Shown here one piece after another: positions 7,427-60,363 of a stretch of 64,000 bases of DNA. Origin of the DNA: an uncultured delta proteobacterium (GTDB taxonomy: Bacteria; Desulfobacterota; Binatia; UBA9968). The number at the start of each line of letters is the position of its first letter. The first letter of the stretch is position 1. The stretch spans positions 1,344,001 to 1,408,000 of the forward strand of contig CAVSHR010000004.1 in NCBI GenBank assembly GCA_963727625.1, written 5' to 3'. Position numbers and translations under genes: made by a program. The notes under the pieces are model-generated. The model was not told the DNA's origin. It searched no databases and saw only the letters and a program-made list of their open reading frames with translations.

Positions 7427-7584
7427 GCGCCGGAACCGATCTCAATCGGATAATTAGCGTTTCGTGCCCACAAGGCTAACGAGTTTCCGAGAGACGGCAG
7501 CGGACTGTCCGTGTTTGTTTTGGTCTACTGGTTTGGCGCAGCCGCGGATCTCGTCAACGAGTAACAATATTTCAAGGACGACTT

Positions 7585-11470: not shown

Positions 11471-11547
11471 CGCGGGGTGGAGCAGTCTGGTAGCTCGCAA
11501 GGCTCATAACCTTGAGGTCCCGGGTTCAAATCCCGGCCCCGCAACCA
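11471..11547 (+). tRNA. Initiator tRNA-Met (CAT)
   Basis: CGCGGGG/CCCCGCA acceptor stem with C1:A72 mismatch; anticodon arm CAAGG-CTCATAA-CCTTG; T-loop GTTCAAATC; encoded CCA. Confidence 0.96.
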
Positions 11548-12607
11548 ATTCTTTCAAGGCTTTATCAACCAACGGTTCGAAAACGGTTTGATCGAGCTTC
11601 AGTCCTAGGGTCCCGCAGTAGTCCGCCTGTATCATCGCCAACGACGTTCCGCAGTATTGAGCTACGGAAAGCGGATTTTCACCCCGCTTGATTGCTTCCG
11701 TTATGAACGTGTGCCGAGTCGCGTAGAATTTTCGATGCCTAATCCCGATTTTCTTTAACGCACCGCCCCAATTGTGCTCACTCCATTTCCTCGCGTTCAT
11801 CGGTTCCCCGTTCTTGTTCACAAAGAGATGCTTAAGCCCGAGCTGGCACGAAGGAAGGATTTCCAGAACCCTTAAAACGGGCTTCCCGAACTGAATCGTC
11901 CTAGCACTGCCAAAGGTTTTAGGCCCCGACTCGCTGCCCATATATCTCGATTTGCTTATCGCTATCGTCTGCCGCTCCAAGTCTACATCGGCCCAGGCAA
12001 GCGCGGAGGCTTCAGACGGTCGCATTCCGGTATGGAACAACGTAAAGACCCAAGGGAAATAAAAGAAGTCGCTCGCAGCCCAATACGCCACAATCCTGTC
12101 CCTTTCTTCTGCCGTGAACGGATCAGGCTTGGCCCGCTGGTTGGATGGCCATCGAATATCGATAAATGGATCTCTCCCCATCAACTCCTCAAGTTCTGCC
12201 CTAGCATCTCGATAAAGCGCTCTAAATGAGCCGTCAATGACATTCCTCACAGTTTTGACACTAAGACCTTGCCGTAACAGCTGCATCCTGAATTCGGTCA
12301 ATTCGCCCGTACCAATGGCCAACAGACGCCTACTTTTGAATTTGGGCAGAATATACGCCCGAAAATGCTGGCTGTAGTCCCGAACCCGCGACCGTCTAAA
12401 CAAGGGCTCAATCTTGGTATTGATCCACGAATCGAAGTACTCCTGGACCGTCGGAGTTGGGGTTAATCCGTACGTGCCCTGGATGTACTGCTCAAGACGA
12501 TGCTGGGCTAATCCCTTTTTCGTCGTCTTAAGCGACTTCATCAGGCTTCCGTCGATCAGGTACCACATAGAGCCGCGGTCCTTACGTTGTTTTAGGTGTG
12601 GGGGCAA
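11504..12607 (-). CDS. Phage/ICE-type tyrosine integrase
   Basis: TGMRPSEASALAWADVD, GPKT, FYATRHTF, C-terminal Tyr (ADYC); 3' end overlaps the tRNA antisense. Confidence 0.92.
   Translation of the reverse strand: MPPHLKQRKDRGSMWYLIDGSLMKSLKTTKKGLAQHRLEQYIQGTYGLTPTPTVQEYFDSWINTKIEPLFRRSRVRDYSQHFRAYILPKFKSRRLLAIGTGELTEFRMQLLRQGLSVKTVRNVIDGSFRALYRDARAELEELMGRDPFIDIRWPSNQRAKPDPFTAEERDRIVAYWAASDFFYFPWVFTLFHTGMRPSEASALAWADVDLERQTIAISKSRYMGSESGPKTFGSARTIQFGKPVLRVLEILPSCQLGLKHLFVNKNGEPMNARKWSEHNWGGALKKIGIRHRKFYATRHTFITEAIKRGENPLSVAQYCGTSLAMIQADYCGTLGLKLDQTVFEPLVDKALKELVAGPGFEPGTSRL
11525..11548 (+). repeat. att core copy 1 (tRNA 3' end)
   Basis: TTCAAATCCCGGCCCCGCAACCAA. Confidence 0.95.
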
Positions 12608-12803
12608 TTACGGCCTCCTGAAAGGGAATCTGTAATCCGTCTACAACGCGGTAAAGGGCATCGATCCGTCGCGGAGCTTCGCCCCGCAATATCTTAGCCA
12701 GGGTTTTGTTATTAACTCCACAAAGGGCACAAACGTCAACGACCTTAAGCTGCTTGGCGGCCATCGCCTGAAGGATGCGGGGAACGTTGATCGAGACGTT
12801 CAT
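12582..12803 (-). CDS. XRE/Cro-type HTH regulator (possible repressor or excisionase)
   Basis: KVVDVCALCGVNNKTLAKILRG HTH pattern; overlaps the integrase start. Confidence 0.7.
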   Translation of the reverse strand: MNVSINVPRILQAMAAKQLKVVDVCALCGVNNKTLAKILRGEAPRRIDALYRVVDGLQIPFQEAVIAPTPKTT

Positions 12804-12819: not shown

Positions 12820-13086
12820 CTAACTAGCCTTTTTCCACCCCGTGACTATTTTCCTCAGTCCAGGTTCCCGCAGTTTTTCCATGGTCTCTTGGACGGTATC
12901 AACCACACCCTTTGCAAGGCTTTTTAGGCCATAGCGATTGACGGTTATCGCTAAATACAACAACGTGGCCGCCCGCAGGAATTCGCTAACTTTCATGTCA
13001 AGTTTTTCGGCAGCCTCTTCAAAGGCTTTTTTATCCTGCGCCGACACTCTAACCATGATCACTTCACTGCGGTCTTGTTTTTCCAT
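12820..13086 (-). CDS. Ribbon-helix-helix (CopG/MobC-like) protein
   Basis: VIMVRVSAQDKKAFEEAAEKLDMKVSEFLR; RBS GAGGAGG. Confidence 0.7.
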   Translation of the reverse strand: MEKQDRSEVIMVRVSAQDKKAFEEAAEKLDMKVSEFLRAATLLYLAITVNRYGLKSLAKGVVDTVQETMEKLREPGLRKIVTGWKKAS

Positions 13087-13241
13087 AGCGCCTCCTCACG
13101 AGTAGATTGTGTATATCATTATAGCTCAGAGTATGTCAAGCGCTACTTTGACCGTATATAACAAGTGAACCGGAAAATAACCCGCCTATAGTTAGGGAGA
13201 TAACCCGCCGCCCCGGTCGGCTTTTGCCGGAGAAGTTTACG

Positions 13242-13270
13242 TTGACAAAACGGGCTAGTTACACGATATT
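13242..13270 (+). promoter_or_regulatory. Candidate cassette-array promoter (Pc-like)
   Basis: TTGACA-N17-GATATT about 85 bp before the first cassette boundary. Confidence 0.45.
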
Positions 13271-13355
13271 TTAAACGATTCCGATTCTATCGTCGAAACC
13301 GCCGCAGGAGATAAGCCGACCGGGATTTCCCGCGGCTACTGCGGGTCACTTATTA

Positions 13356-13362
13356 GTTAGGC
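13356..13362 (+). other. First cassette crossover point (attI-like), G/TTAGGC
   Basis: GTTAGGC is the exact reverse complement of GCCTAAC that ends cassette 1. Confidence 0.7.
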
Positions 13363-13370
13363 CAACAACA

Positions 13371-14089
13371 ATGGTTTATTCCATCCCAATTGCCATCATA
13401 CTTTTCGGAATCATTCTCATTGCTCCGACGGTCGACGAGTCAAGGTACGCAGATCCAAGTTGGCGTTGGGAATTCGAGACCGCGGACGTGTCGCGACCTT
13501 TCCGGCGATCTGTCCCGGAAATTCTACGAAGCACAGGCTAACAATTTGACTCCAGCCGCCATACGCTCGGACCATGGTGCCGCGGTAATCAGTCTCGGAG
13601 TGTCGATTGCTGCTCTCTTTCTGATGCTTCGACTTCGAACGTTTCGAGATCTGTTTCATTTAGGGACACTAGCAACTCGGCGAGGAATGTTCTGGATGGC
13701 AACCGCAGCATGGTGGGGTTGGGTTCCGGCACAGTTGCTGTGGCTGCAATATACACTTGAGCGTGGAGACTATCCGTGGTGGGCGGACAATATTGCAATC
13801 CCAATCGCAGAGGAGCGTGTTCTTTTGTGTGCTTGGTTTTCCCTTTGTGCTATGCGGTTGGTATCTCTCAACGCGCGGAGTGAGACTGCCGGTCGCCGTT
13901 TTACAAGTTCCACGGGGCTCCAAGGGTGTGGTGGCCACGGCGTTTTTAATGGTACTCCTTTCATGGTTTGTGCTCGCAGGCGTTCGGGCCTTTGGGGAAG
14001 GTGACGTGTTCACAATTCCAGTATCGGTTGTCGGGGTTTATGCAAGTGTTGCTCTCTGGGCAGCGGCGTGTGCACCGCGAGTGGCCTAA
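13371..14089 (+). pseudogene. Cassette 1: multi-pass membrane protein, apparently two frameshifts
   Basis: ATG 13371 (MVYSIPIAIILFGIILI), continues in ORFs 13390-14004 and 13757-14089; stop TAA lies inside the attC R'' box. Confidence 0.6.
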
Positions 14090-14164
14090 CAAACGGCTTG
14101 AAACGGATCGTCGGACCGGCTCGCTGCGCTCGCTGGCCTTGTCCGTTCAGCCGTAGCGTTAGAT
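14084..14164 (+). other. attC site 1 (81 bp)
   Basis: GCCTAAC-5nt-GCT(T)GAA(A)CGGA ... TCCGTTCAGC-6nt-GTTAGAT; imperfect palindrome with extrahelical bases. Confidence 0.88.
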
Positions 14165-14178
14165 TTCAAAGGAAGCTT

Positions 14179-14803
14179 ATGACCAACTACTTTTGTCAAC
14201 TCGAGAATCAACTTCCGGCCATACAGAGCTTATCTTCTTCTGAAGGAGTAAAGGGCTTTTTTGGCCAGGAAGTGCTCCGCTTCCACTCAATTGCCGGGAC
14301 CTTGCTTGCCAACTTTTGCCTCGATGGTGGCGCCAGCGTTGATGAGCGCTACATTACGCACATCCTTGCCCGATCGTTATTGGAAAACTATTTCTGGCTC
14401 ATCTACCTGTTCGATGATCCCGCCCAAGCAGAAATTCGATATCAGCACCTGACGAACTCCTTCAAACGGGATTACTTGAAGCTAATGAATGAAGACCGGC
14501 TCCCCCAGAAGGATCAGCTCGAACCCGCAGATCCGGCTCTGGGCGAGCTGGCAGCGCGCACCCGATGTAAACAGCATGCTCGCGCAAGTGACGAACGACT
14601 ACGGAGACCGCCTTAATTACCTGTATTTCATTTACCGGATTACCAGCTTCGATACGCACGGTAAGAATTTAGGCACAGTTCTCCAGACCGTGTTCGGCAA
14701 AACATGCAATTTTCCGGTGCTTGATCTCAAGCACGTTATTGAGCTTGTTGCCAATCAATACCTTGTTATCCTCGATGGGCTCCGAAATGATCATGAAATC
14801 TAA
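14179..14803 (+). pseudogene. Cassette 2: DUF5677/HEPN-like helical protein, one frameshift near 14540
   Basis: ARSLLENYFWL..L then, in the shifted frame, LYFIYRITSFDTHG; stop lies inside ATCTAAC. Confidence 0.55.
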
Positions 14804-14882
14804 CCGCCGCTTGAGCCGACGCCGAGCGTTGTGAGTTAATGAAGCTTTTCTGCTGTAGCGGCTCAGCGGCATGGCGTTAGCT
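14798..14882 (+). other. attC site 2 (85 bp)
   Basis: ATCTAAC..CGCT(T)GAGCCG ... CGGCTCAGCG..GTTAGCT; R'' is complementary to GTTAGAT at the cassette start. Confidence 0.87.
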
Positions 14883-14890
14883 AGCACTGC

Positions 14891-15587
14891 ATGATCACAT
14901 CGAATGTCATTCATCGCGTCTTTCGCATCCGGCACGGAGCTTCGGAGGCGACGGCGTTCACGTTAGAACTAGACGAGAGGGAGTATCTCGTCACGGCGAA
15001 GCACGTGGTCAAAGACTTGACGAACGAGCAAACGATCGACGTTTTCGGAAATGGAGCTTGGCAGCCAAGGGAAGCGACGCTTGTCGGTCACGCGGTTGGA
15101 GACCGCGACATTTCGGTCCTGGCTTTTAAGACCGTTCTGACGCCTCCGGGCCTGCCGATGCCGGCGACAAGCAAGGGTGTGATCTATGGTCAAGATGTGT
15201 TCTTTCTCGGATTCCCCTACGGCTTTGTCGGTCATTACGCATTCGGTCCGGCAAGGCTTTCCGCTACCTTTTGTGAAGAAGGCAATCGTCTCATTGCTCG
15301 ACCGAGACACCTTTCTGCTTGATGGTCACAATAACCCAGGCTTCTCGGGTGGGCCGGTCGTTTTCAGGGAAGCCGGAAAAGTAGACCTGAATGTCTTTGC
15401 AGTCGTTTCAGGATTCCAGGCAGTTAACGAGCCGGTCTACGTTGGTGACAGTCCCGTATACGCCGGCGCTGGCGAGCCCGTTGTCTTCAGGTACAACACC
15501 GGAATCATCGTAACGTGGAGTGTCGATTTCGCTGTGGAACTCATCAAGGCGAACCCGATCGGCGCGATGAGAAACGGTGCTGGCTAA
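14891..15587 (+). pseudogene. Cassette 3: trypsin-like serine protease, one frameshift near 15250
   Basis: Catalytic triad LVTAKHV / DRDISVL / NNPGFSGGPV split over ORFs 14891-15322 and 15186-15587. Confidence 0.75.
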
Positions 15588-15631
15588 CCAATGGGGTGAG
15601 ACCGGCAGGCAGCTCACCCAGAACGTTATGC
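15582..15631 (+). other. attC site 3 (very short, 50 bp)
   Basis: GGCTAAC-CAATG-GGGTGAG-12nt-CTCACCC-AGAAC-GTTATGC; the cassette 3 stop lies inside R''. Confidence 0.7.
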
Positions 15632-15889
15632 CGTAACCACGCAAGGCCGTGCCGTATGTTCCAGCGTGCCTTACGCCATTCACAGCGACGTTCACGTGCC
15701 TTGCAGTGTTCTGCCACCTTGAACCTTTTTTCGGAGATCCGAAAACCCCGAACGCTAGTAAGGGGTTTTCGAAGGGATTCAAGTCATGAGCCCCAGTGCC
15801 ACGCCGGAGCAGCGCGCCGGAATCCGCCGCCCTGCTCCGCCTGTCAATGAACACGAACGGAGAAAAGCGGATTAGTCGACTTTGTAATG

Positions 15890-16096
15890 TCACAACCCCG
15901 CTCCAGGAGACATTGAGCGAAACTCATTGACGATGCCCGGTGACCCCATCATGAGAGTCACTTCACAACACACACAGTACATTTCCAGTTCGCCCTCAAA
16001 GTCCGGTATCAATTGAACCCTAATCTTGTGGCCGCGACTCCCGTGACTTACTAGACTACGAAATGAGCCGTTGAACATCTTTTGAACTTTCACCAC
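15890..16096 (-). CDS. Small hypothetical protein with CxxC, downstream of rep
   Basis: 68-aa ORF with YCVCCE; RBS GAGGTG. Confidence 0.45.
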   Translation of the reverse strand: MVKVQKMFNGSFRSLVSHGSRGHKIRVQLIPDFEGELEMYCVCCEVTLMMGSPGIVNEFRSMSPGAGL

Positions 16097-16201
16097 TCAC
16101 CTCTCGAAATTTTCTTCCACATTTGCCTTTAAACGAACGATCTCACGTTAACCCTTGTCTGAACCCTCGCCCTTTACAGAGGCGCACCACTATTGTAAAG
16201 C

Positions 16202-16894
16202 TCAGAACAGCTCAACTATTTGACGCTCTCGTACATCGAGCAGCCTTCCTCCAAACACCGTCGAGCCCTCATTCAATAACTCTTCCCACGCAACAAGCAG
16301 ATCTTGAAAAGTGACCTCTGGCACTTCACGATCAAACTTGTAAGCGTAATGCACGTCATGGCGAACCAATCTCAACATGCGAACCATAAACTTCCAGCCT
16401 TTACCTATGGCAAATCTTGCACGCTTCCAGCTCCAGGACATCCTCACCAGTGCCCCCCGCTGATCGGCCAGGTATTGAAGAGCGAAATATCTCCCAACGC
16501 GACGAATTGAATTCTTCCCCAGATTCATCCGCTGAATATAAACAATGTACGCTCCGTGAATGACGTCCCACTGTTCGGAAAGCCAACCTTGATCGATGAT
16601 GAACGTCCGATCGCCAGCCCAGGCCCAAACCATGTGGAGAACTCCATTGCCCTCCGAGGTTTCCACCACGAACGTTTCGACTCCTTTGTAACCGAGGTCA
16701 CGTTCAACTCGCCGGCGAAGCTCTTGGAGATGGCGACGCAGGAGATGAGCCGGACCATTATCAGCAGTGGTTAGATCGATCCTCGAAATCTGACAATTAC
16801 GAGATTTTGCTTCGTAGCACCAACTTATAAGCCGGTTAAATACTCGCTTCTGTTGTTTTGTCCACGGCTTAAAATCACCCTTAGAATTCACCAC
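16202..16894 (-). CDS. HUH-superfamily rolling-circle replication initiator-like protein
   Basis: Motif I IDLTT, motif II EGNGVLHMVW, W..W (WLSEQW), motif III RYFALQYL; RBS AGGAGG. Confidence 0.7.
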   Translation of the reverse strand: MVNSKGDFKPWTKQQKRVFNRLISWCYEAKSRNCQISRIDLTTADNGPAHLLRRHLQELRRRVERDLGYKGVETFVVETSEGNGVLHMVWAWAGDRTFIIDQGWLSEQWDVIHGAYIVYIQRMNLGKNSIRRVGRYFALQYLADQRGALVRMSWSWKRARFAIGKGWKFMVRMLRLVRHDVHYAYKFDREVPEVTFQDLLVAWEELLNEGSTVFGGRLLDVRERQIVELF

Positions 16895-17045
16895 AAAACC
16901 TCCTTTGCACGACAGCCAACGGTTTGATTTTGGTTAGATCAAGGGTAGCCATAGGCAGCCTTTAGGCGCTTTTCCGCTTTCGTAACTTGTTGATTTGTTG
17001 AGAACTTAGCAGTTGCAGACTGTTAACAGCAGACGCTTCGGCGGA

Positions 17046-17069
17046 TTCAAATCCCGGCCCCGCAACCAA
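17046..17069 (+). repeat. att core copy 2
   Basis: Identical 24-mer. Confidence 0.95.
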
Positions 17070-17275
17070 CTTTTCCGAATAGTTAGAATACCCGCTGTGC
17101 CGATTTTGAGCGATGTTGAGCCCCTGCCGCGCGCAATAGTTCGCCTCGATCATCGCCACGCTGGTTCCTACGTAATCTGCAATCGCCTTTAGATTGTGCC
17201 CTGCCCTTACCAGCTCGGTGATGGTCGTATGCCGGCAAGCGTAGAATTTGCGGTGCCGGATGCCGAGCTTTTTCA
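17046..17275 (-). pseudogene. C-terminal remnant of a second, paralogous tyrosine integrase
   Basis: KKLGIRHRKFYACRHTTITE..VGTSVAMIEANYC..LVAGPGFE aligns by eye with the integrase 1 C-terminus. Confidence 0.88.
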
Positions 17276-17324
17276 GTTGAGAACTTAGCAGTTGCAGACT
17301 GTTAACAGCAGACGCTTCGGCGGA

Positions 17325-17699
17325 TTCGTCGAGGACGTTCATCGAACGGTCGACGAACGAGAGGAGACACGGACTGTAAGGATCGCGATGGGAGATGTCG
17401 TTCAGGAGATTGCGCGGGGGAGCCGGAGTGTCCGAGAGTGTGGTGCTCAACAAGGGACGTGGTCGGCTTGGGAGCCCCGGCTCAGGGCCGAGGCGGCGTA
17501 TGTGGGGCGGGAACTGGGAGGAATTAGTTTGACGCAGGCTGCGCAGTATTTGGGGCGAGATCTGAGCACGATGTCGTTAGCGCTAACGCGTTTGGAGAAT
17601 GAGCTGGGAAGCGACGGCGAAAAGCGCAAGCGCCTGGACTCTCTTTGCGTCCGGCTGCGACAAGGGAGAAGGCGCAAATATCAAATAAGCAAAGCCTGA
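17325..17699 (+). pseudogene. C-terminal remnant of a Y1/RAYT-like transposase with a DnaA-C-like HTH
   Basis: FVEDVH..RAEAAYVGRELGGISLTQAAQYLGRDLSTMSLALTRLE..KYQISKA; no N-terminal catalytic domain. Confidence 0.55.
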
Positions 17700-29660: not shown

Positions 29661-31253
29661 ATGGAAACGCCTTCAGCCGAAAGTGCGCCCCGCTCAGCGC
29701 CCTTCAGCGGATTTCCTTCAGGCGGCTTCTTCTTTCGCGGCCTCCACATCGAAGAAATCTTGACGACGCTCCGCGCCAATATCGAAGCAAGAAGAAGCCT
29801 GACCGCCGTCATAGGCGAAGGGGGCAGCGGAAAGACCGCTCTGCTGAACAATCTCACCGCCGATTTGCGCGGCGACGTCATTCCCATCAGGACATCGAAC
29901 CCGCGGTTGAATTTCACCGGCATCCTGCGCCTGATCCAGTTCACCCTCGATCCGGAACTAAGCGCTGCGGAGGAAGACGCGCTGCTGGCGATCTGCAAGT
30001 ACTGCCTGCGCGCGCGCAGACGACAAAAGCAAATCATCGTCTTGATTCTTGACAACGCGCATCACCTCGCAGAATCGACCCTGAGCCGGCTAGCGCAAAG
30101 TTTTACTGAAACTGGTCCGCAGGATTACGACGGTCCGTTGTTGCAAGTAGTCTTCGCCGGCCGGCCGCAGCTGAAAACAGTGCTGCTGCAGGCCGCTCAG
30201 TCACCACCAAGCCAGCGCCCGGTGATCTGCGAGCTTGGCCCGCTGCGGGGCTTTGAGGTCGCTTCCTACATCGAGCAAGGGCTGCGCGCGGCTGGCTTGC
30301 CGTCTAAGTTATTCGAGCTTTCCGCCGTCGAGCAAATCGCCCGGTCAAGCAACGGCAATCCGGCTCGGGTCAACGCGCTTTGCAACCGCGCCTTGCAAAT
30401 TGTCGGCACAAGCAGCAGCGGACAAATGACCGCCGAGTTGATTCAGACCATCGCCCACGACCTCCATATGGGCGACGCTCGAGCCCAAGACCACGAACTG
30501 GTACGGGAAAAGATCGGGCCGGCCGAGAAGGATAACTCCACGGAATTTCAGTTCGGGGAGCCGAGCGCGACGGACGTCGTCGGCGAAACATTTCTACATT
30601 ATCATACCGGTTATGATCGCAATCGTCTTCTCCAGCCGCGCCGGATTATCAGGAGTGTGGCGCCGCTCGTCGCTCTTCTAGCACTGGCCGCGGGGGCCGG
30701 CGCGTGGAGCCAAACCAAGCCGGGAGCCAGTCAATTGACCCGCGTGAGCAGGGCGCTTTCGCAAATCTTTCCGTCGCTCTACCGTATCGCCGAGCCTCCA
30801 CGAGCTCAATCCTTTTCGGCGCCGATGGCGCTCCCGGCGATCCCTGAGGAGCCGTTCCCAAGCGCCTCTCATCCGGCTGCGCAGGAACGAGAGAGCAACG
30901 TACCACAAGCTGAGCAACCGCGGACCACTGCGGAAGCACCGGGTGATGCTGCTGAGGAAACCTTTGGATCGAGCGAAGCGGCACCACCGCGCGCACCTGC
31001 ACCGACACAGAAGCGGAACTTCCCGCCGACGCAAGCCAACACCTTCGAACCGCGCGACAAGTTGGAAGCCAAAATCATTCAGGCAATTTCGCATCGCGCG
31101 ATCATCGGTGTCGGTGTCTCCGTGGTTGGGGGCACGGCCATCCTCGAAGGCCATGTCGCTAGTGAACGGCAACGGCGAGCCGCCGAACGGGCTGCGCGCA
31201 GCGTGGATGGGATAGAACGGGTGCGTAACCGAATCACGGTCAGCGTTGGCTGA
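29661..31253 (+). CDS. ExeA/GspA-like AAA ATPase with TM segment and C-terminal BON domain
   Basis: GEGGSGKT; LILDNAH; LQVVFAGRPQL; GNPARVNALC; C-terminal AILEGHV..DGIERVRNRITV. Confidence 0.85.
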   Translation: METPSAESAPRSAPFSGFPSGGFFFRGLHIEEILTTLRANIEARRSLTAVIGEGGSGKTALLNNLTADLRGDVIPIRTSNPRLNFTGILRLIQFTLDPELSAAEEDALLAICKYCLRARRRQKQIIVLILDNAHHLAESTLSRLAQSFTETGPQDYDGPLLQVVFAGRPQLKTVLLQAAQSPPSQRPVICELGPLRGFEVASYIEQGLRAAGLPSKLFELSAVEQIARSSNGNPARVNALCNRALQIVGTSSSGQMTAELIQTIAHDLHMGDARAQDHELVREKIGPAEKDNSTEFQFGEPSATDVVGETFLHYHTGYDRNRLLQPRRIIRSVAPLVALLALAAGAGAWSQTKPGASQLTRVSRALSQIFPSLYRIAEPPRAQSFSAPMALPAIPEEPFPSASHPAAQERESNVPQAEQPRTTAEAPGDAAEETFGSSEAAPPRAPAPTQKRNFPPTQANTFEPRDKLEAKIIQAISHRAIIGVGVSVVGGTAILEGHVASERQRRAAERAARSVDGIERVRNRITVSVG

Positions 31254-31373
31254 GTAGCAACCGACCCCGGGATCATCCTGAACGTGAAATTAACCGGCGC
31301 GACGAAGAACCCGGCACCGCCATCCGCTTGGCGTCCGGCGAAACCCTCCCGGCACACCGGGTGATTTCCGTCG

Positions 31374-32717
31374 TCACCTTTCCAAGTCGTCGCTCGGCTG
31401 CAACGCCGATATTTTCCAACCTTGCCGCGGCCGGCCGATGATCCGGTTATTCTGCGCTCGATTGCCACCGAGGGAATCTTCGACCGCAAACGCTATGCCC
31501 GACGCTTCAACCACGTTGTTGCTCAACTCATTACCCAGCAGGGCGCCGCCGAGAGCCACGCCGTTGGCGAATCCTTGGACCTTGTTTTCGGCGACCAATG
31601 AGTTCTGCAGGCGGCGCAAATCGATGGCGAATTCCTTGCCGTTTCGCCCGTGATTTTCAAGAATATTGCCGACAATCGAAATTTTCTTAAACAGGATTCC
31701 CGCGACCGCCGAGGTATTGGCAAAGATGGTTTGCGCCGGCGCCGGCGCACCCGCCTCGATGCGAAAACGGTTGTTTTTGATTTCCAAATCTTCGAAAACA
31801 TTGCCGTCAGCCGGCTTGGAATTGTCCGGTGTGCCGATCCGTATACCGTAGCCTGCGGTCGTCGTCCGAATCACCTGATTGTTGGCGATCGAGATCCGCG
31901 TGAATCGACAGTGACGGTCGGTCGGCGGGTCGATGCCGACGCTGATGCCGGCGCCGAGCGGATCGACGATTTTATTGTTGACGATTTTGAAATCCTCGGC
32001 GACCGCCCCCCCGCCGACCGTGAAAACGCCGATACCCGCGGTTTTCACAGCGCGCCTCACCACGTTGCCGTCGATGACCACCCGGCGCGCGTGATTGACC
32101 TCGAACTGGAGATCGTCGATGAAATTGTTGACGATCTGCACGTCCTGGCTCGGCGCTCGGCCCTTGCCCAAAACGACGGAGTAACGATCGGTCCTATCCA
32201 CGGGTTTGGGCGCGCCGTCCCAAAACCAATTATTTTCGATGCGCAGGCGTTTGGCGGCGTAAAAGACCACACCGCCGTAGGACTTGACGCCGTTGGCGTC
32301 GAAGCCGAGTTGGGTGATGACGATATCGGACGCGCCGTCGAATGTGGCGATGCGCTCCGCGCCGGCCTTTCGTTTGATCACGCTGCGCCGGCCGGTGCCG
32401 GCAAACACCAAATCCGAACGATTGATCACCCGCAAATTGGACACCGGATAAATGCCCTCGGGAAATTTTATGATCGCGTTCTTTGGCGCTCCGTCGATCG
32501 CCCTCTGGATCGCCGCCGTATCATCCGAGACCCCGTCGCCGCGCGCGCCCAAAGCGCGCACGTCAATCATCCTAGGCTGCGGATTTGTCGCGGCGAGATG
32601 GAGCAAGCCGCCGGATCGCGGGAAACCCTGCTGCATGCGTGCCGGCACGGCGCCGGCTAGAAGAATCGCCAGCGGCGCCGCGATCATCAGGGCGGTTCTA
32701 AACTTTGACGGTTTCAT
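31374..32717 (-). CDS. Secreted right-handed beta-helix protein (pectate lyase-like)
   Basis: GARGDGVSDDTAAIQRAID..FPEGIY; repeated IxNN strands. Confidence 0.85.
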   Translation of the reverse strand: MKPSKFRTALMIAAPLAILLAGAVPARMQQGFPRSGGLLHLAATNPQPRMIDVRALGARGDGVSDDTAAIQRAIDGAPKNAIIKFPEGIYPVSNLRVINRSDLVFAGTGRRSVIKRKAGAERIATFDGASDIVITQLGFDANGVKSYGGVVFYAAKRLRIENNWFWDGAPKPVDRTDRYSVVLGKGRAPSQDVQIVNNFIDDLQFEVNHARRVVIDGNVVRRAVKTAGIGVFTVGGGAVAEDFKIVNNKIVDPLGAGISVGIDPPTDRHCRFTRISIANNQVIRTTTAGYGIRIGTPDNSKPADGNVFEDLEIKNNRFRIEAGAPAPAQTIFANTSAVAGILFKKISIVGNILENHGRNGKEFAIDLRRLQNSLVAENKVQGFANGVALGGALLGNELSNNVVEASGIAFAVEDSLGGNRAQNNRIIGRPRQGWKISALQPSDDLER

Positions 32718-33942
32718 TTTCCGACCTCGCTTTCCTAGGCTCGATGGCGACGCCGCGGATCGCTTTCTCGTCGAGCAGTTGCCGGTAAAGCTGATCCATA
32801 TCGTCGATCAGCCGGTTCACGTCGAAGCGCCGGCGCGCCGCGAGCATGGCATTTTGGCCGAGGCGCGCGGCCTTTTCCCGATCGCCGAGCAGATCGAGAA
32901 CCGCGGCGGCCATGGCCTCGGCATCGCCGGCCGTGACCAACCGTCCGGTGATCTCGTCCGCGATGATGTCGGGAATCCCACCGACGCGGGTCGCCACCAC
33001 CGGGCAGCTCGCTGCCATGGCTTCGATGGCGGAGAGCGGCGTACCCTCATTATTCGAAGAGACCACCAGCACATCCAAGTCCGCGTAGATGCGCGGCAGA
33101 TCCGTGCGCCAACCGGTAAAATTGACGCGCGCCGCGATGCCGAGCCGGCGCGCGTGATCTTCGAGCGCCCGGCGCAACACGCCGTCGCCGACGACGACGA
33201 AATGCGCGGCCGGTTCGGCTCGGGCGATGCGCGCCGCCGATTCGAGAAACAGCGCGTGATTCTTGATCGGAAACAGACGGCCGACGATGCCGATCAGTCT
33301 GGCATCGCCCGCAAAGCCGAACTCGCGGCGGAATTCGCCTTGGCGGCGCGGCGCCTGGAGAAACGGCTCGATATCCAGCCCGAGCGGAATGACGGTAATC
33401 TTATCCGCCCTGGCAACGCCGTAACCGATCAAATCCTGTTTAACCTGCTCGCTCACAGCGACCAAACGATCGCTCAGCCAGGCAAGCGACCGCTCCATGC
33501 GACGGAGCGTCCAGTTTTTAACCGCGCCGTAATAGCCATGAAGCACATGGCCGTGAAAGGTATGGACGACAATCGGCACGCCGGCCAGACGGGCGGCCAC
33601 CCGTCCGAGCAATCCCGCCTTGGCCGTATGGGTATGGACGATATGCGGCCGATAACGGCGCATCACCAGCCAAAGGCGTGCCAGCGCTTTAGCGTCGCGC
33701 GGCGTCAGATTAAAAGACGTGACGATCTCGCGGATGCGATGCGGCCACACGCCGCGCGAGAGCGCATAATCCAACATGGATCCTTCTGCTCGGCTCTCGC
33801 GGCCGATCACCAGCAGTTGTTCGAATCGGTCGGGATTCAAGCCCGCGGCCAAATTGACCACGTGGATGCTCGGCCCGCCGACATTCAAGCGGCCGATGAC
33901 GCGCAGAACTCGGACCTTGTTTTCGCGCTGACGGGAAGCCAT
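32698..33942 (-). CDS. Glycosyltransferase family 4
   Basis: RLNVGGP, HTHTAKAG, SNNEGTPLSAIEAMA. Confidence 0.93.
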   Translation of the reverse strand: MASRQRENKVRVLRVIGRLNVGGPSIHVVNLAAGLNPDRFEQLLVIGRESRAEGSMLDYALSRGVWPHRIREIVTSFNLTPRDAKALARLWLVMRRYRPHIVHTHTAKAGLLGRVAARLAGVPIVVHTFHGHVLHGYYGAVKNWTLRRMERSLAWLSDRLVAVSEQVKQDLIGYGVARADKITVIPLGLDIEPFLQAPRRQGEFRREFGFAGDARLIGIVGRLFPIKNHALFLESAARIARAEPAAHFVVVGDGVLRRALEDHARRLGIAARVNFTGWRTDLPRIYADLDVLVVSSNNEGTPLSAIEAMAASCPVVATRVGGIPDIIADEITGRLVTAGDAEAMAAAVLDLLGDREKAARLGQNAMLAARRRFDVNRLIDDMDQLYRQLLDEKAIRGVAIEPRKARSENETVKV

Positions 33943-35843
33943 GAGCTCACCTCGCAATCGATGAACTGGCGATGCCAGATTTCCAGAGTCAATAGAGCCC
34001 AGAGACGGTGGCCGTGATCGCGTTCGCCGCCGAGATGTTCACCGACCAGCCGGCGCAGCGCTTGCTCGTCGAAATAACCGCGGCGCAGCGCTGTCGGCGA
34101 CAATAAATGGTCGCAGAGAAAATCCCGCAGACCGGCGCGAAACCAGCGTCCGACGGGCACGCCAAAGCCATGTTTCTTTCGCCAGAGGATCTCGCTCGGC
34201 AAGAGACCCTCGAAGGCACGCTTCAAAACATACTTCGTCGTCATCCCTTTGAGTTTGAGCGAAGTCGGGATCCGGCTGGCGTATTCCAATAGCCGGTGGT
34301 CGAGAAACGGGCAGCGCGCCTCCAAAGAATGGGCCATCGTCATGCGATCGCTCTTCACCAGCAAATCTCCCGGCAGATAACTCGAGAGATTGACCGCAAG
34401 CAACTCGTCGATCGGATCCGCGCCCGCGCGACCGCTAAAATAGCCGCGAAAGTGAGCGACCGGATCGATCTCGACGGTATCGGTGATCAGCTGGCGCAAT
34501 GCCTCGGGCGTGAAGATGCCGACCCATTCCAAATAGCGCTCGGGCAGCGGCAGCGCCGCGCTGCCGACGAAACGTTTGACCCGGCGCGCCAGATCGTCGT
34601 ACGCGGTTGATTCCGGCCAGAAGCGCGCCAGCCGGTTTACGGCATCCTGGACGCAGCGCGGCGCGCGCCGGTAGTACTCCGCCAGACGGGCGGCGGCAAA
34701 TCTTTCGTAGCCGGCGAAAAGCTCATCGCCACCGTCGCCGGTGAGCACCACTTTGACATGGGCCTGCGCCAGCCTTGCGACCCAGTAGGTCGCAAGCGCC
34801 GACGAATCCGCGAAGGGCTGATCGTAGTGCCACACCAGCTTCGGCAGCAACTCGACCGCGTCCGGCTGCACGATCAGTTCGTGGTGGTCGCTGCCAAACT
34901 GCCGCGCCACCCTGCGCGCGAACGGCAGTTCGTTGAACGACGGCTCGTCGGCGAAGCCGATGGAAAACGTGCGCACCGGCCCGCCGATCAGCCTGGTCAT
35001 CACGGCGACCACCGCCGCCGAGTCGACACCGCCGCTCAAAAACGCGCCGAGCGGCACATCGCTGGTCAAGCGCAGCCGCACCGCTTCCTCGAAACGCTCG
35101 CGCACCTGTTGGATATATTCCGATTCGAAAAACCGCGGCGCGTCGACCGGCTCCCGCGGCGCGCTCCAGTAACGGCGGATGGCAGTCTGATCGCCTTCGA
35201 CCCATAGCATGTGACCGGGCGGCAGCTCGTGGATGTTCTCGAAGAAGGTGAGCGGGCTCGGCACGTAGCCGTAGGCCAGATAGAGCGGCATCACCGCGCG
35301 GTTCACGATGGCGCGGACGCCGGGGTGGGCAAGCATCGCCTTGATCTCCGAACCGAAGACTAGTCGGTTCGCATCCTGGTGATAATAAAGTGGCTTCTTG
35401 CCGAGCCGATCGCGCGCCAGGAACAGCCGCAACTCGGCGCGCTTTCGGCCGTCGTAGATGGCGAAGGCGAACATGCCGCGCAACCGCTTCACGCAATCGA
35501 CGCCCCACTCCTCGTATGCGCAGAGAACCACCTCGGTGTCGGATCGGGAGCGAAAGCGGTGACCGCGGCGCTTGAGCTCGTCGCGCAAGTCGACGAAGTT
35601 ATAGATTTCGCCGTTGAAAACGATCCAGCAAGTCTCCGCTTGATTGGCTATTGGCTGCTGGCCGCCCTCGATATCGATAATGCTCAGCCGGGTCATGCCG
35701 AGAACGGCGTCGTCGAAGACTACCGCGCCGTGATCGTCGGGGCCGCGATGGGCCAGCGCGGCGTTCATCGGCTCAAACAGCGCCGTCGACCACCCGATGT
35801 CGCTTTTGCCCTGAAGCTCGATCCATCCGCAAATACCGCACAT
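33885..35843 (-). CDS. asnB: Asparagine synthase (glutamine-hydrolysing)-like amidotransferase
   Basis: MCGICG, HRGPD, FNGEIYN, FLSGGVDS, GDGGDELFAGY; probably amidates the polysaccharide. Confidence 0.93.
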   Translation of the reverse strand: MCGICGWIELQGKSDIGWSTALFEPMNAALAHRGPDDHGAVVFDDAVLGMTRLSIIDIEGGQQPIANQAETCWIVFNGEIYNFVDLRDELKRRGHRFRSRSDTEVVLCAYEEWGVDCVKRLRGMFAFAIYDGRKRAELRLFLARDRLGKKPLYYHQDANRLVFGSEIKAMLAHPGVRAIVNRAVMPLYLAYGYVPSPLTFFENIHELPPGHMLWVEGDQTAIRRYWSAPREPVDAPRFFESEYIQQVRERFEEAVRLRLTSDVPLGAFLSGGVDSAAVVAVMTRLIGGPVRTFSIGFADEPSFNELPFARRVARQFGSDHHELIVQPDAVELLPKLVWHYDQPFADSSALATYWVARLAQAHVKVVLTGDGGDELFAGYERFAAARLAEYYRRAPRCVQDAVNRLARFWPESTAYDDLARRVKRFVGSAALPLPERYLEWVGIFTPEALRQLITDTVEIDPVAHFRGYFSGRAGADPIDELLAVNLSSYLPGDLLVKSDRMTMAHSLEARCPFLDHRLLEYASRIPTSLKLKGMTTKYVLKRAFEGLLPSEILWRKKHGFGVPVGRWFRAGLRDFLCDHLLSPTALRRGYFDEQALRRLVGEHLGGERDHGHRLWALLTLEIWHRQFIDCEVSSWLPVSAKTRSEFCASSAA

Positions 35844-35876
35844 ATTGCGATCCTCCCTTCGAGCGGAATCAATTTG

Positions 35877-37016
35877 TCAGGCGAATACTCGCAAGCGAGT
35901 CGCGCCGCCGCTTAGGTCCTGATACAGCGCGATGGTCGCCGCGGCCATCCGATCGGCGCTGAAATACCGCCGCACCCGCTCGCCGGCCCGCTGCGCCAGC
36001 CGCTGTCGTCGCACCGGCTCGCGCGCCAGCCGAGCCAGCGCGTCGGCAAACGCGGCGGGTTGGCCGGGCTCGACGAGCAATGCCGATTCATCGTGCACGG
36101 CGATTTCCGTCAAGGGCGCGACTCGGCTCGCGACGATCGGTTTGCCGGCCGCCATGGCTTCGACCATGACCTGGCCGAACCCTTCCGAGCAGGTCGCAAA
36201 CGCGAACACGTCGAGGGCGGCGAGAAACGCGCCGATGTCGCTTTGAAAACCGACCAGGCTCACCCGATCGCCGACTCTGGAATCGCGAATCTGCCGGCGC
36301 AACTCGGCGCCGTAGCCCCAGGGATCATGGCCGGCGATCAATAACTGCGCGTCGGCAACTTGGCGCAGGATTTCGGGCATCGCTCGGATCAAAATCTGGT
36401 GGCCCTTGCGCGGCTCGAGCCGTCCGATCGAGCCGATGACGAACCTTCCATCGAGCCGCCAACCTTGACGCAGGTCGATGCGCGCGCCGGACAACCTTTC
36501 GGTGTCGATGCCGTAGTGAATGACCGCGGCGCGCTCGGGCGGCAGGCCAGCCCCGATCAGCCAATCGCAAACCGCATGGGAGATGCACAGGATCCGATCG
36601 GCGCGGCGCCAGAGCCTGTGCATCAACGGCAAACTCCACCGCGCCGACCAATCGACGCTGTAAACCGCGTGCACCGAGCTCACCCAGACGATCGACGGCC
36701 GGCGATATTTGACGAACGCGCCGGCCATGTCGGCGCGCGGCAGATGGGTATGGAGAATGTCCGGCTGTTCCGCGGCGACCAACCGCATGACTCGACCGAA
36801 AAAGCGCGAGTCATAGCGCCCCGCCGCACCGAGGTCAGCAACGCGAACACCCGACGCTTCAAAGTCGCGCCGCAGCGAGCGGCTGCCGACGACTCGCTCG
36901 CGCAAACAAGCGACGACCGGGTCAACGCCGCGGTCGCGCAGATGGCGGCACAGGGTGAGCAGATGCAATTCAGCGCCGCCGGCGGAAAGGGTATTGATCA
37001 GGTGAAGAACTTTCAT
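35877..37016 (-). CDS. Glycosyltransferase family 4
   Basis: GGAELHL, GRLEPRKG, SEGFGQVMVEAMAAG. Confidence 0.92.
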   Translation of the reverse strand: MKVLHLINTLSAGGAELHLLTLCRHLRDRGVDPVVACLRERVVGSRSLRRDFEASGVRVADLGAAGRYDSRFFGRVMRLVAAEQPDILHTHLPRADMAGAFVKYRRPSIVWVSSVHAVYSVDWSARWSLPLMHRLWRRADRILCISHAVCDWLIGAGLPPERAAVIHYGIDTERLSGARIDLRQGWRLDGRFVIGSIGRLEPRKGHQILIRAMPEILRQVADAQLLIAGHDPWGYGAELRRQIRDSRVGDRVSLVGFQSDIGAFLAALDVFAFATCSEGFGQVMVEAMAAGKPIVASRVAPLTEIAVHDESALLVEPGQPAAFADALARLAREPVRRQRLAQRAGERVRRYFSADRMAAATIALYQDLSGGATRLRVFA

Positions 37017-37053
37017 GGCCTTCTGGACAGCCTCCGTGAGCCGCCTTGGCGCC

Positions 37054-38535
37054 TCACACAGAAACGCCCCTCCGTCTGACCCGCAGCAGGGTTTCACCCA
37101 AAAAGATCAGGCCGAACGTAAAACCAACCACCGTCAGAGCCTGGGGCCAAACCTCGAACGATGCCCACATCATCTGCAGAGAATATATGAGCGCGAGCAC
37201 ATAGACGGCGGCATGCAAACGCCCGCGGCGAAATTGCAGATAAAGCGTCTTGATCACGATGCCGTAAAGCAGCATCACGACGGCCACGCCGCCCAGACCG
37301 AAGTTAACATAGGCGTCGCCGATCAAAGAGGCATTGACCGCCCATTTGTCGTCTTCGGTGGCAAAGCCGAGCAGCGTTTCGACGATGTAAACCCCGGTGC
37401 TCCGCCCCGGGATAAAAATGAATTTGTTCAGCGGCCATGAGAGCGCGCCGATAAACGTCTGTCCGCCAAGGACGCCGGGACCGATGGCGATCGCTCCCGC
37501 CAGGCTGTGCAGTTGCCCGAGATCGGTAAAAATACTGACCTGCAGGTATTCCCAAAACCCGCTCAGGGTTAAGCCGTCGGAAAACGCCCGGGCGCCGAGC
37601 GCGCCGCGATACATCGCGCCGATATAAGACACGGAAAGCACCGCGAACAGGATCAACGGCGCGATCACGACGTAGGGATAGTTGACCGTAATCCTCGGCC
37701 AGCGCTGCTGCTGGCGGCGCAGATACCAGAGCAGCAACAAGCCGCCGACAATCGAGATCATCGCCCGATTCCGCCCGCCGAGCACCCAGTAAAATAGCGT
37801 CGCCAGCCCGGCCGGTAACAACGCGTGCCATGCGCCGACCTTCGGCAAGTAGTAGCAGGTCAGCAGCACGCTGCCCGAGATCAGCAGATAGGCCATGAAG
37901 AAATACTTGCCGGTGCCCTGTTGAATCGTCGTTTCACGAAACGCGCCGCTGCCGATGACCTCGAGCGAGGCGTTGCTGACGAGAAAAACGGCGAGCGCGG
38001 CAAACCCCAACAGCATGCCCGCCGCGGCGGCGGCACGGGCGCCCGGCGCCAAGGCGAACCTCAAGCCGGACGACGTGGCAAGCGGCCGCGCGCGCTGAGC
38101 CAAGAGCCATCCCAGAATGGCGGCAAGCAAGCCGAACAGAGCAAGCGCGTGTCCCCACCGCCAATCTTCGCCGGTCAGTTTCATCGCGTCGAAAAAGCGC
38201 CCGACCTCATCCGGCAGGACCGCGCCATGGAGCAGGAACAGCGCCGGAAGGAAGTGGCGGACCGCGCAGATCGCGCAAACCAGGCACAGCGGATTGAACG
38301 AATCGCGCCAGATTTGGATGGTTCGTAAGAAGGCGACGAGGATCGCCGCGTAAGCGACGATCGCGAAATAGGGCAAGAGCCCGGCCTGGCGCGCAGTCAT
38401 CGTGATGACGCCGAACAAAAACGCCGCGGCCGCCAGCCAAAAGGAAAAATAGCCGCGCGCCGCCCGTGCGTCGGCGTCAGCGGACCAGCGCGTCAAGGAT
38501 TTTTCAGAAGTGGCAATCAACATCGCCTTTCTCAC
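37054..38535 (-). CDS. Polysaccharide polymerase (Wzy-like membrane protein)
   Basis: Many TM segments; GGRNR; DAYVNFG; lies within the EPS locus. Confidence 0.75.
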   Translation of the reverse strand: MRKAMLIATSEKSLTRWSADADARAARGYFSFWLAAAAFLFGVITMTARQAGLLPYFAIVAYAAILVAFLRTIQIWRDSFNPLCLVCAICAVRHFLPALFLLHGAVLPDEVGRFFDAMKLTGEDWRWGHALALFGLLAAILGWLLAQRARPLATSSGLRFALAPGARAAAAAGMLLGFAALAVFLVSNASLEVIGSGAFRETTIQQGTGKYFFMAYLLISGSVLLTCYYLPKVGAWHALLPAGLATLFYWVLGGRNRAMISIVGGLLLLWYLRRQQQRWPRITVNYPYVVIAPLILFAVLSVSYIGAMYRGALGARAFSDGLTLSGFWEYLQVSIFTDLGQLHSLAGAIAIGPGVLGGQTFIGALSWPLNKFIFIPGRSTGVYIVETLLGFATEDDKWAVNASLIGDAYVNFGLGGVAVVMLLYGIVIKTLYLQFRRGRLHAAVYVLALIYSLQMMWASFEVWPQALTVVGFTFGLIFLGETLLRVRRRGVSV

Positions 38536-39644
38536 AAGCTCTGGTCGAGCGAATGCGCCAGGCGCCCGTCCCGCCCCGCCTGCACGGACGCAAATAGCGC
38601 GATCAGCCGCTGCGCCAGCCGATCGATCGAATGGAGCGACTGCACCCGGATGCGCAGGTATGCGCCCATGCGGTCGCGCTCGGCGGCGGGGAGCGCCAAC
38701 AGGCGGGCCAGGCGCTCGGCCAACTGGCGGTCGTCACCGAAATCGTAGGTCAGCTCGTTCTTGAATTTTCCCAGCGTGGCGCAGAATCCTTCATTGGCAA
38801 CCACGCACGGCCGGGCGCAGCTCATCGCCTCCCACGCAACCTTGTCGCCGAATCCAATGGGCGACATGTTGACGTGCACGGCGCAACGTCGATAGCGCTC
38901 GGGCAGCCGTTCGATCGGCACCGCCGGTTCGAAGGAGACGACAGCCTGCAATTGCGCCCGATCGATCTGTTCACGGAGCTCTTGGACATAGGCGCGATCC
39001 TGTGCCACCGCCGGTGCGCCGACGATGACCACTCGGAAAGCGCGCGCGGCGCCGCGGCGCAATCGCTCGGCGGCCCGAATCAGGGTCGGATGATCTTTCA
39101 CCGGCGAAAGCCTGCCGACGCAAAGAATGATCGGCGGTTGGCTCGGCTGCGCGTCCGGACCAGGCGAAAATAGCTGGGTATCGATGCCGTGGCCGATCGC
39201 CACGAGCTTGTCGTGTTTATAGGGATAGGCGGTGTCGACGCTGGCGACCGTTTTCGCCGATAAGCGATGCGCCGCCTTGAGCGCCCAGGACGCGTGGGGA
39301 TGGGCGTACCAGGTGACGATCGGAACTTTTTTTCGCCGCAGCAACGGCGCGCCGAGGACGGTGAACAGCGGCATCATGTGCGCGAAGCAGACGTCCGGCG
39401 GCGATTCGCGCAAGACCCGGCTCAGGATTCGGTAAAATTCCGCCGCCCGGCGCGGCTCGCCGTAGCCCATCTCCTTGCCGACGGAATCGACCCGCACGTT
39501 GCTTGGGAGTTGCAACCGGCCCGCCCTCATCGTGATGACCTGCACGGAATCGATCCGCTGTGCCAGGGCGCGAATCCAATGGGTGGTAAAACCGAGAATC
39601 GGATCGTCGATGTCGGTGGCGAGATTAAAAATGAGCAATCGCAT
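38532..39644 (-). CDS. Glycosyltransferase family 4
   Basis: GHGIDT, VGRLSPVK, DKVAWEAMSC. Confidence 0.9.
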   Translation of the reverse strand: MRLLIFNLATDIDDPILGFTTHWIRALAQRIDSVQVITMRAGRLQLPSNVRVDSVGKEMGYGEPRRAAEFYRILSRVLRESPPDVCFAHMMPLFTVLGAPLLRRKKVPIVTWYAHPHASWALKAAHRLSAKTVASVDTAYPYKHDKLVAIGHGIDTQLFSPGPDAQPSQPPIILCVGRLSPVKDHPTLIRAAERLRRGAARAFRVVIVGAPAVAQDRAYVQELREQIDRAQLQAVVSFEPAVPIERLPERYRRCAVHVNMSPIGFGDKVAWEAMSCARPCVVANEGFCATLGKFKNELTYDFGDDRQLAERLARLLALPAAERDRMGAYLRIRVQSLHSIDRLAQRLIALFASVQAGRDGRLAHSLDQSL

Positions 39645-40815: not shown

Positions 40816-40821
40816 CGCGGG

Positions 40822-43295: not shown

Positions 43296-43393
43296 GTTGG
43301 CGTTTTCATGGGCGCGCCGGAGATCGTCGAGCCGGACTCGGCGCGTTTAGTCCACGGTTGATGAAAAAATATCTCCCCGGGCGCTGACGGCGC

Positions 43394-44242: not shown

Positions 44243-44275
44243 TGGAATCCCCTTTCCTCGCCACCCGGCCGCAGG

Positions 44276-48590: not shown

Positions 48591-48617
48591 GGACTTCGCG
48601 GTGCCGGCGCTTGCCCG

Positions 48618-49631: not shown

Positions 49632-49690
49632 AGAAACCGTTCCTCCGTGGCCAAAAATATTTTCTTCTTTCTGCATCCAGGGAATGCGAC

Positions 49691-60351: not shown

Positions 60352-60363
60352 GGCGATTCCCCG

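Follow-up and report, generated by a model that had tools for sequence, protein, structure and literature searches.

An integron cassette array without its own integrase behind an attI-like unit on a tRNA-Met island of a Binatia bacterium

Described systems and the present locus

One known kind of integron element is the attC cluster that has no integron integrase (CALIN), which was defined for IntegronFinder as a set of two or more same-strand attC sites without an intI close by (PMC4889954). The locus described here occupies positions 13356-15631 of a 64,000-nucleotide stretch of DNA from an uncultured delta proteobacterium of the Binatia lineage; this whole stretch is referred to as the window. 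The locus is a CALIN in an unusual setting: three cassettes lie on one strand, an attI-like unit heads them, and a small element integrated at a tRNA-Met gene carries them. In the part of PMC4889954 that was available, 83% of CALINs are reported to stay below six sites of attC type, and for about half of them an IntI gene is located at another place on the replicon that carries them. Arrays are said there to be most often transcribed opposite to intI; for the majority of integrons the attI site is not known, and the authors made no search for it. Four possible origins of CALINs are put forward in the same part of the source, and none of them is chosen.

Four features of a CALIN are all found in the window array, namely at least two same-strand attC sites within 4 kb, the attC architecture, the cassette boundaries and the lack of an intI nearby. 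As with the CALINs in the available part of that source, the array is small (three sites), keeps to one strand and has no intI nearby, with an IntI elsewhere on the replicon. It differs from them, and is unusual, in three respects. It keeps an attI-type head with a putative promoter, and this head is multi-copy; it sits in a tRNA-integrated element with a Rep-like gene; and all of its genes (3/3) are broken as assembled.

Cassettes inserted at secondary sites, as described in the accessible part of bioRxiv 10.1101/2022.09.11.507474, similarly lie far from the integrase, with IntI acting in trans. The target in the window, in contrast, is conserved, repeatedly used and attI-like, and is not an arbitrary GTT. 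A further comparison is offered by the resident integron of the same genome (C4:364115-372082), which has the same attC architecture and one cassette in common with the array. It differs in possessing its own intact IntI, upstream of its array and co-oriented with it, and in its attI region, with which just short motifs are shared. Another system of relevance is Salmonella genomic island 1 (SGI1), an integrative mobilisable island that carries a class 1 integron array and keeps its own intI1 and resistance cassettes. In both cases, a cassette array is found on a site-specific island with a non-integron integrase; the window array, however, is without intI or a resistance gene, and its host is an uncultured environmental bacterium. 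The phrase 'orphan attI' and similar ones gave no on-topic match within the limited literature searched.

The origin and continued activity of integrase-less cassette clusters is an open point in integron biology. The present locus provides a testable case, as it combines a recurrent landing site, a cassette in common with the resident integron and an element seemingly able to excise and replicate. If its cassettes are loaded in trans, the 'memory' of the integron would be spread over several platforms per genome, some of them mobile without an integrase. If they are not, the locus would be an ordinary decaying CALIN.

Core sites and cassette boundaries

The cassettes follow one another on the forward strand. 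Cassette 1, with its bounding core sites, lies at 13356-14164 and ends in attC1 (14084-14164); cassette 2 lies at 14158-14882 and ends in attC2 (14798-14882); cassette 3 lies at 14876-15631 and ends in attC3 (15582-15631). The initial annotation of this DNA had placed six core heptamers here, and reading of the sequence bears out each position. GTTAGGC (13356-13362) is complementary to GCCTAAC (14084-14090) at all seven positions, as is GTTAGAT (14158-14164) to ATCTAAC (14798-14804), and GTTAGCT (14876-14882) is complementary to GGCTAAC (15582-15588) at six of seven, with one mismatch. The final R' of the array reads GTTATGC (15625-15631), and the attC lengths of 81, 85 and 50 nucleotides (nt) agree with those given earlier. 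The bounds GTTRRRY and RYYYAAC, which had been assigned to every unit, hold in a looser form: the heptamers are in place, but GTTAGCT, GGCTAAC and GTTATGC depart from the strict consensus, each by a single position. Taken alone, GTTRRRY shows no enrichment across the window: 82 matches are expected and 85 are present.

The 5' core of each cassette complements its own 3' R'' and not the neighbouring R''. Such a pattern is explained by recombination at G|TT, which yields it. Thus, both hallmarks of an integron cassette, boundaries at G|TT and complementarity to its own R'', are present. The terminal reading frames end at 14089, 14803 and 15587, each at a TAA within R''; the earlier statement that every stop codon lies in the R'' box is therefore correct, and so is that of very short leaders, which measure 8, 14 and 8 nt.

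Folding and covariance model of the attC sites

The bottom strands of attC1, attC2 and attC3 fold with -18.5, -17.5 and -10.9 kcal/mol, against -16.9, -16.2 and -10.1 kcal/mol for the top strands. Folding of the bottom strands, which had been proposed as a check, thus comes out slightly in favour of that strand, but it is weak when set against shuffled sequences: the hairpin z-scores are -1.8, -1.0 and -1.4, and they are equalled by 9, 30 and 21 of 200 shuffles. As folding alone was weak, a covariance model of attC was built. The model was trained on 18 sites, none from the array and with the twin of attC1 (see below) excluded; 11 of them lie downstream of copies of the attI-like unit in relatives, and seven come from the array linked to the genome's own IntI. 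Candidates were picked with a home-built scan for AAC...GTT hairpins, which served for this purpose only because its counts had no discriminating power. The model inherits this home-made hairpin rule, since the training sites were picked by it.

RNAalifold returned no consensus structure on the attC alignment, and the structure was therefore set from a table of column pairs. Its elements are the R box, a spacer and a pair of 4-bp helices separated by one bulged base. In the training alignment, 77.2% of the cells pair, against 21-42% when the partner is slid by 1-3 columns, and double-sided changes are seen in 33 cells against 10-16 in the slid versions. The pairing value was reached by none of 500 shuffles.

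The 64 kb of the window were searched with this model on both strands, with filters off and at E<=10, which gave 37 matches. Ranks 1-3 are taken by the three attC sites of the array, all on the forward strand: attC1 with 36.6 bits (E 4.5e-6), attC3 with 30.7 bits (E 9.1e-5) and attC2 with 27.1 bits (E 5.9e-4). The next-best match reaches 19.7 bits. All 15 model pairs are placed in each of the three sites, with a single-base bulge on the R''-L'' arm. The attC architecture is thus seen in full, with R'' and R' carrying AAC and GTT, an unpaired spacer, an L''/L' helix and an extrahelical base. The initial annotation had described L''/L' pairing with extrahelical bases for attC1 and attC2 and had suggested a covariance model as a check; the model alignments place the bulged base in all three sites, and the search ranks them first in the window.

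Support for the attC identity comes from the covariance model and not from the hairpin energy. As an outside check, the model was applied to 80 metagenome loci of relatives of the cassette-3 protein, where 47 of its 49 matches at E<=0.1 fall on the gene strand. A match lies at most 150 nt before or after the protease gene in 21 of the 80 loci, and on both sides of it in six. A search of Rfam returned nothing in the region except the tRNA. The rank-4 match of the window search is a lone attC-like sequence in an intergenic gap at 7474-7537 on the minus strand (E 0.026), and it could be a stray attC or a product of chance.

A twin of cassette 1 in the resident integron

Cassette 1 (13356-14160) has a twin at C4:369165-369970 on the minus strand, within the array behind the genome's own IntI. 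In 805 nt, the two copies differ by four substitutions, one 2-nt deletion and one 1-nt insertion. The identity spans the G of GTTAGGC to the GTT of the next core site, and the flanks are unrelated on both sides. It follows that a cassette-sized unit moved between the two contexts via core-site recombination. The stacking by IntI-type recombination that the initial annotation had proposed is supported both by this twin, bounded at core sites, and by the 5' cores that match their own R''. The search for the same cassettes in other integrons, which had also been suggested, was successful for cassette 1 in the integron of the genome itself. The companion proposal, that the cassettes came from different donor integrons, found no support: the twin of cassette 1 resides in the same genome, and sequences like attC1 and attC2 recur in genomes of the same genus, which indicates one local cassette pool.

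The IntI of the resident integron (C4:370957-371898) matches TIGR02249 with 467.8 bits, the cut-off being 265, and has an array behind it on its own strand. It is the only intact one in the genome and lies 985 kb from the window array on the same contig. About 135 nt separate the resident intI from the first cassette, which lies behind it in the same orientation, and the junction reads ACTTAATGGTTAGCC. Cassettes flank the resident intI on both sides, as is seen from C4:376053-378278 on the minus strand (L010, 16054-18278). Further along, at C4:790494-790583, 30 residues of a 71-amino-acid (aa) frame match the C-terminal region of the IntI model with 34 bits. An attC match of 34.1 bits is found 1.3 kb from this fragment, at C4:791864-791944, and the two are possibly what is left of another decayed integron.

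The attI-like unit heading the array

The array is headed by a 184-nt unit at 13175-13358 on the forward strand, which terminates in ACTTATTAGTT where cassette 1 joins it. It contains a predicted outward-pointing promoter, composed of TTGACA, a 17-nt spacer and GATATT (13242-13270), with a scan score of 10 of 12. Judged from its sequence, this promoter would drive the cassettes.

The unit belongs to a family with four copies in this genome. Matches at E<=1e-8 were obtained in 20 of the 31 genomes of the genus, with up to seven copies per genome. An alignment of 26 near-full copies was prepared from the window, 24 of the loci matched in the genus and L023, after partial matches and duplicate loci had been dropped. 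The 26 copies end in ACTTAATAGTT, and the promoter is near-invariant in all of them, pointing toward the cassettes. Pairwise identity among them averages 0.72 over the 40 nt that precede the G of GTT and drops to 0.26 over the 40 nt that follow the heptamer. The GTT itself is present at the junction in 22 copies. In 12 copies, a downstream heptamer complements the junction bases at 6 of 7 positions or more and is followed by an attC-like hairpin. Thus, conservation up to the crossover GTT, variability beyond it and a first cassette at that point, by which an attI site is recognised, are found here as a sequence pattern. As its homology is lost at the terminal GTT, the unit is predicted to behave as an attI-type site with its own promoter, in most cases without an integrase.

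The last 12 nt of the unit resemble the junction of the genome's own attI. A blastn search around 80 IntI homologues from other taxa did not detect the unit. In two of the 26 copies, those of relatives G021 and G007, an intI lies directly upstream on the same strand. Three other loci (L032, L042 and L045) have about 30 nt of upstream flank in common with these two intI-linked copies and show no IntI match. The unit is also found upstream of ordinary-looking genes. A second orphan unit, at C2:110088-112387 (L141), heads two cassettes with unbroken open reading frames (ORFs), one for a 331-aa substrate-binding protein of ABC type and one for a 262-aa methyltransferase-like protein; their attC sites score 36.8 and 22.7 bits.

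Search for an integron integrase at the locus

Up to a distance of 40 kb from the array, no match to TIGR02249 reaches E<=0.001. The genome-wide search with this model gave 14 matches, a single one of which exceeds the cut-off of 265. Inside the window, matches of 96 and 63 bits are located at 60.4-61.2 kb; they are Xer-like and below the cut-off. The arrangement of a complete integron, in which intI adjoins attI and the array, is therefore absent from the locus.

The island has a tyrosine integrase of its own, a phage-type protein of 367 aa encoded at 11504-12607 on the minus strand (PF00589, PF14659; PHROG 1, 7e-41), and the 3' end of its gene overlaps the tRNA-Met gene. Its best NCBIfam matches are XerC/XerA with 33-35 bits. 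It gave no TIGR02249 match at E<=0.01 and does not appear among the 14 genome-wide matches. As it is without a match to the IntI family model, it was rejected as an integron integrase.

A 2.5 kb repeat at 58839-61365 is 97% identical to C9:505194-507720 and encodes an Xer-like tyrosine recombinase, with its ORFs at about 60391-61212 on the minus strand. It is probably a mobile element. The C9 copy lies 2 kb from another attI-like unit, beside a group II intron reverse-transcriptase fragment.

State of the cassette genes

As assembled, all three cassette genes read as broken relative to intact homologues. Cassette 1 encodes a membrane protein of unknown family. Its twin is a single open frame of 239 aa, whereas two indels, a deletion of 2 nt before 13491 and an insertion of 1 nt at 13811, spread the window copy over three frames. 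Cassette 2 encodes a DUF5677 protein, the homologues of which have 207-208 aa and are up to 83% identical; the frame switches once, at about 14540-14550. Cassette 3 encodes a trypsin-like S1 serine protease (PF13365) with homologues of 231 aa that are up to 85% identical, and its frame also switches once, at about 15252-15280. Both of these positions were obtained from the frames of tblastn. There are thus four indels in 2.2 kb across the three cassettes, none of them in a homopolymer run. The initial annotation had assigned one gene to each unit, which does not hold in the assembly, where each coding region runs through two or three frames. The frameshifts had gone unnoticed in it, as had the lack of IntI at the locus, the attI-like head and the setting in a tRNA-Met island. 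With all three genes frameshifted, the array looks to be decaying.

Cassettes 2 and 3 have no paralogues in the genome, and the cassette coding sequences gave no match at the DNA level among the 40 other relatives searched. With PADLOC, the protease family matches the LmuA and RT-protease models only, and a role in defence is not claimed for it, as these matches are just weak.

Between the C-terminal frame of cassette 3 and P0002, a 231-aa protein on a contig of 5,471 nt, the identity is 99%. P0002 is without the frameshift of the window, but has another locally shifted stretch further upstream. Its contig is about the size of the island, in which the repeats are spaced by 5,521 nt, and it may represent the element after excision or in circular form, or else come from a variant strain. 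This contig was absent from the metagenome loci scanned for relatives of cassette 3.

Origin of the array

Positions 13356-15631 are a real three-cassette integron array without its own integrase. With fair confidence, it is a CALIN that has an orphan attI at its head, is served in trans and is decaying. An integron integrase acting in trans would insert the cassettes one by one at the GTT of the unit, and its likeliest source would be the genome's intact IntI, 985 kb away. The promoter of the unit would then read into the cassettes, and the island would carry the whole module, the array of which would now be in decay. As the unit is dissimilar to the attI of the resident integron, its recognition by that IntI is assumed. 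A broader proposal is that the unit of about 190 nt is a portable, integrase-less integron platform, which has multiplied in the genus and loads its cassettes via an IntI in trans; we offer it tentatively and would sooner expect it to fail than to hold. In the window, one such platform with three cassettes would have been loaded onto the island with its integrase and Rep-like protein. If this is true, arrays could travel between cells on a non-integron vehicle and be re-activated by the IntI of a new host, which would provide a route for the origin and spread of CALINs.

Several observations weigh against an array that is loaded in trans at an attI-type head. The hairpin energies of the three attC sites are not significant alone (200 shuffles each), and the AAC...GTT hairpin scan shows no excess, as it counts 803 for the genome and 1206 for the reversed-sequence control. 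A matching first cassette was not seen in 14 of the 26 unit copies within the roughly 1.5 kb on hand. Between the unit and the attI region of the resident IntI, blastn detected no similarity, and just short ordered motifs are shared. As for the intI genes beside unit copies, that of G021 is split in two frames and that of G007 matches residues 213-384 only. Lastly, P0002 reads through the shift of cassette 3, so that the frameshifts could reflect polymorphism or errors of the assembly.

This last point belongs to a question separate from that of origin, namely whether the three genes are intact in the organism, with the array working and expressed, and are broken by errors of assembly. Besides P0002, which has its own shifted stretch elsewhere, the nature of the assembly speaks for such errors, as it has 15 contigs and 6.3% contamination. 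However, long unbroken frames of 1184, 920, 777, 652 and 604 aa are found elsewhere, about 22 kb of contiguous long ORFs extend over 31-53 kb, and the backbone genes of the island, the IntI-linked cassettes and the cassettes of the C2 array are all unbroken. The four indels also lie outside homopolymer runs. Assembly errors are thus a doubtful explanation, and the four indels are likely to be real.

With regard to origin, the array might be the relic of an integron, from which intI was deleted and the unit with its cassettes was taken up as a block by the island, with the cassettes no longer exchanged and no IntI acting in trans. Loss of intI is among the origins proposed for CALINs in the available part of PMC4889954. 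It would suit the frameshifts in all three genes, the decay of intI beside unit copies in relatives (one split, one partial) and the three loci L032, L042 and L045, which keep about 30 nt of the upstream flank of the intI-linked copies without an IntI match. The twin is difficult to reconcile with such a history: with four substitutions and two indels, and with its identity confined to one cassette, this near-identical single-cassette copy argues for a recent cassette-sized exchange. Further, the unit begins right at the backbone junction 13174/13175, which leaves no intI remnant between the two, and no TIGR02249 match at E<=0.001 occurs within 40 kb of the array. We therefore regard uptake of a relic as improbable.

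It is still less probable, and indeed very unlikely, that the unit is merely a promoter-bearing intergenic repeat with a chance GTT, used by IntI as a non-att site. Insertion of cassettes outside att sites has been reported, according to the accessible parts of bioRxiv 10.1101/2022.09.11.507474 and PMC4889954, and the unit does precede ordinary-looking genes as well. An incidental target of this kind, however, does not agree with the loss of homology at the same GTT in 22 of 26 copies, with unrelated sequence beyond it, nor with the 12 copies that precede a cassette whose R'' complements the bases after GTT. Two copies directly follow intI, and the last 12 nt are like the junction of the genome's own attI.

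That AAC...GTT hairpins or terminators stand by chance among three unrelated genes with no integron feature is hardly credible, for although the hairpin z-scores are weak, GTTRRRY is not enriched and such hairpins are common genome-wide, the sites hold model ranks 1-3 in the window, a cassette-exact twin lies in an IntI-linked array, copies like attC1 and attC2 occur in genomes of the same genus, and homologues of the cassette-3 protein are found between attC matches elsewhere.

The tRNA-Met island

The array, which we read as served in trans, is carried on an island of about 5.5 kb at a tRNA-Met gene (11471-11547, forward strand; ARAGORN, with an Rfam tRNA score of 63.9 bits). The 3' end of this gene forms the left direct repeat, attL, located at 11521-11553 (forward strand) by a repeat search. 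The right direct repeat, attR, is a 33-nt sequence at 17042-17074 (forward strand), which is 91% identical to the left one by blastn.

A paralogous backbone on C2, 78% and 93% identical to that of the island, carries a different cargo of 2.9 kb at the same junctions. The homology between the two ends at 13174 and resumes at 16107, which leaves a cargo slot at 13175-16106. From the shared junctions, 13174/13175 and 16106/16107, it follows that the attI-like unit, the cassettes and a tail of 475 nt make up the content of this slot. The tail (15632-16106) is not a cassette; it gave no match to the attC model and no convincing gene. The integrase of the island has a full-length paralogue on C2 that is 86% identical. 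The gene for a helix-turn-helix protein of 73 aa (12582-12803, minus strand), which matches HTH_26 and HTH_31 weakly and below the Pfam cut-off, is also conserved there. Beside it lies the gene for an 88-aa ribbon-helix-helix protein of NikA/MobA-like type (12820-13086, minus strand), with a PF21983 match of 31.7 bits, above the cut-off, and weak matches to MobA, MbpA and RelB. In the DNA of 40 relatives, matches to the backbone are short or of low identity. One of 69% covers part of the integrase gene in G005, a genome flagged as unpublished that is also included in the counts for the genus and the order, and stretches of 40-190 nt match the right end of the backbone.

The right part of the island encodes a protein of 230 aa (16202-16894, minus strand) with a predicted fold of the HUH-endonuclease (Rep-like) type. 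It has no match in Pfam, NCBIfam, PHROG or PADLOC, and Foldseek against the PDB gave none at E<=0.001. The AlphaFold model has a pLDDT of 90.7. With VIA-align, it superposes on the ORF119 Rep of SIRV1 (2x3g) with Z 11.4 and an rmsd of 3.1 over 114 of 116 residues. The next match has Z 7.5, and nuclease domains of parvovirus Rep/NS1 are matched at Z 7.3-7.5. H87, Y136 and Y141 are invariant in 29 sequences, and they are candidates for the conserved His and the catalytic Tyr of such a fold. Among 123 genomes of the order, the protein is found in this one only; its homologues are all unnamed, and many of them are on contigs of 4-7 kb. On the strength of the structural model, it is a probable replication initiator of the element. 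The island would thus be a small integrative element that is mobile and probably replicates by rolling circle.

To the right of attR, at 16962-17453, there is a truncated second integrase frame, which shares 55% identity with the island integrase along 78 residues. Beside it is a direct repeat of 52 nt (16997-17048 and 17276-17327), the copies of which are perfect. Together, they suggest remnants of an earlier tandem element at the tRNA-Met gene. The G+C fraction is 0.49-0.56 in the island and its flanks, against 0.58-0.66 over 30000-50000, and few parts of the window have lower values than the stretch of 11-17 kb.

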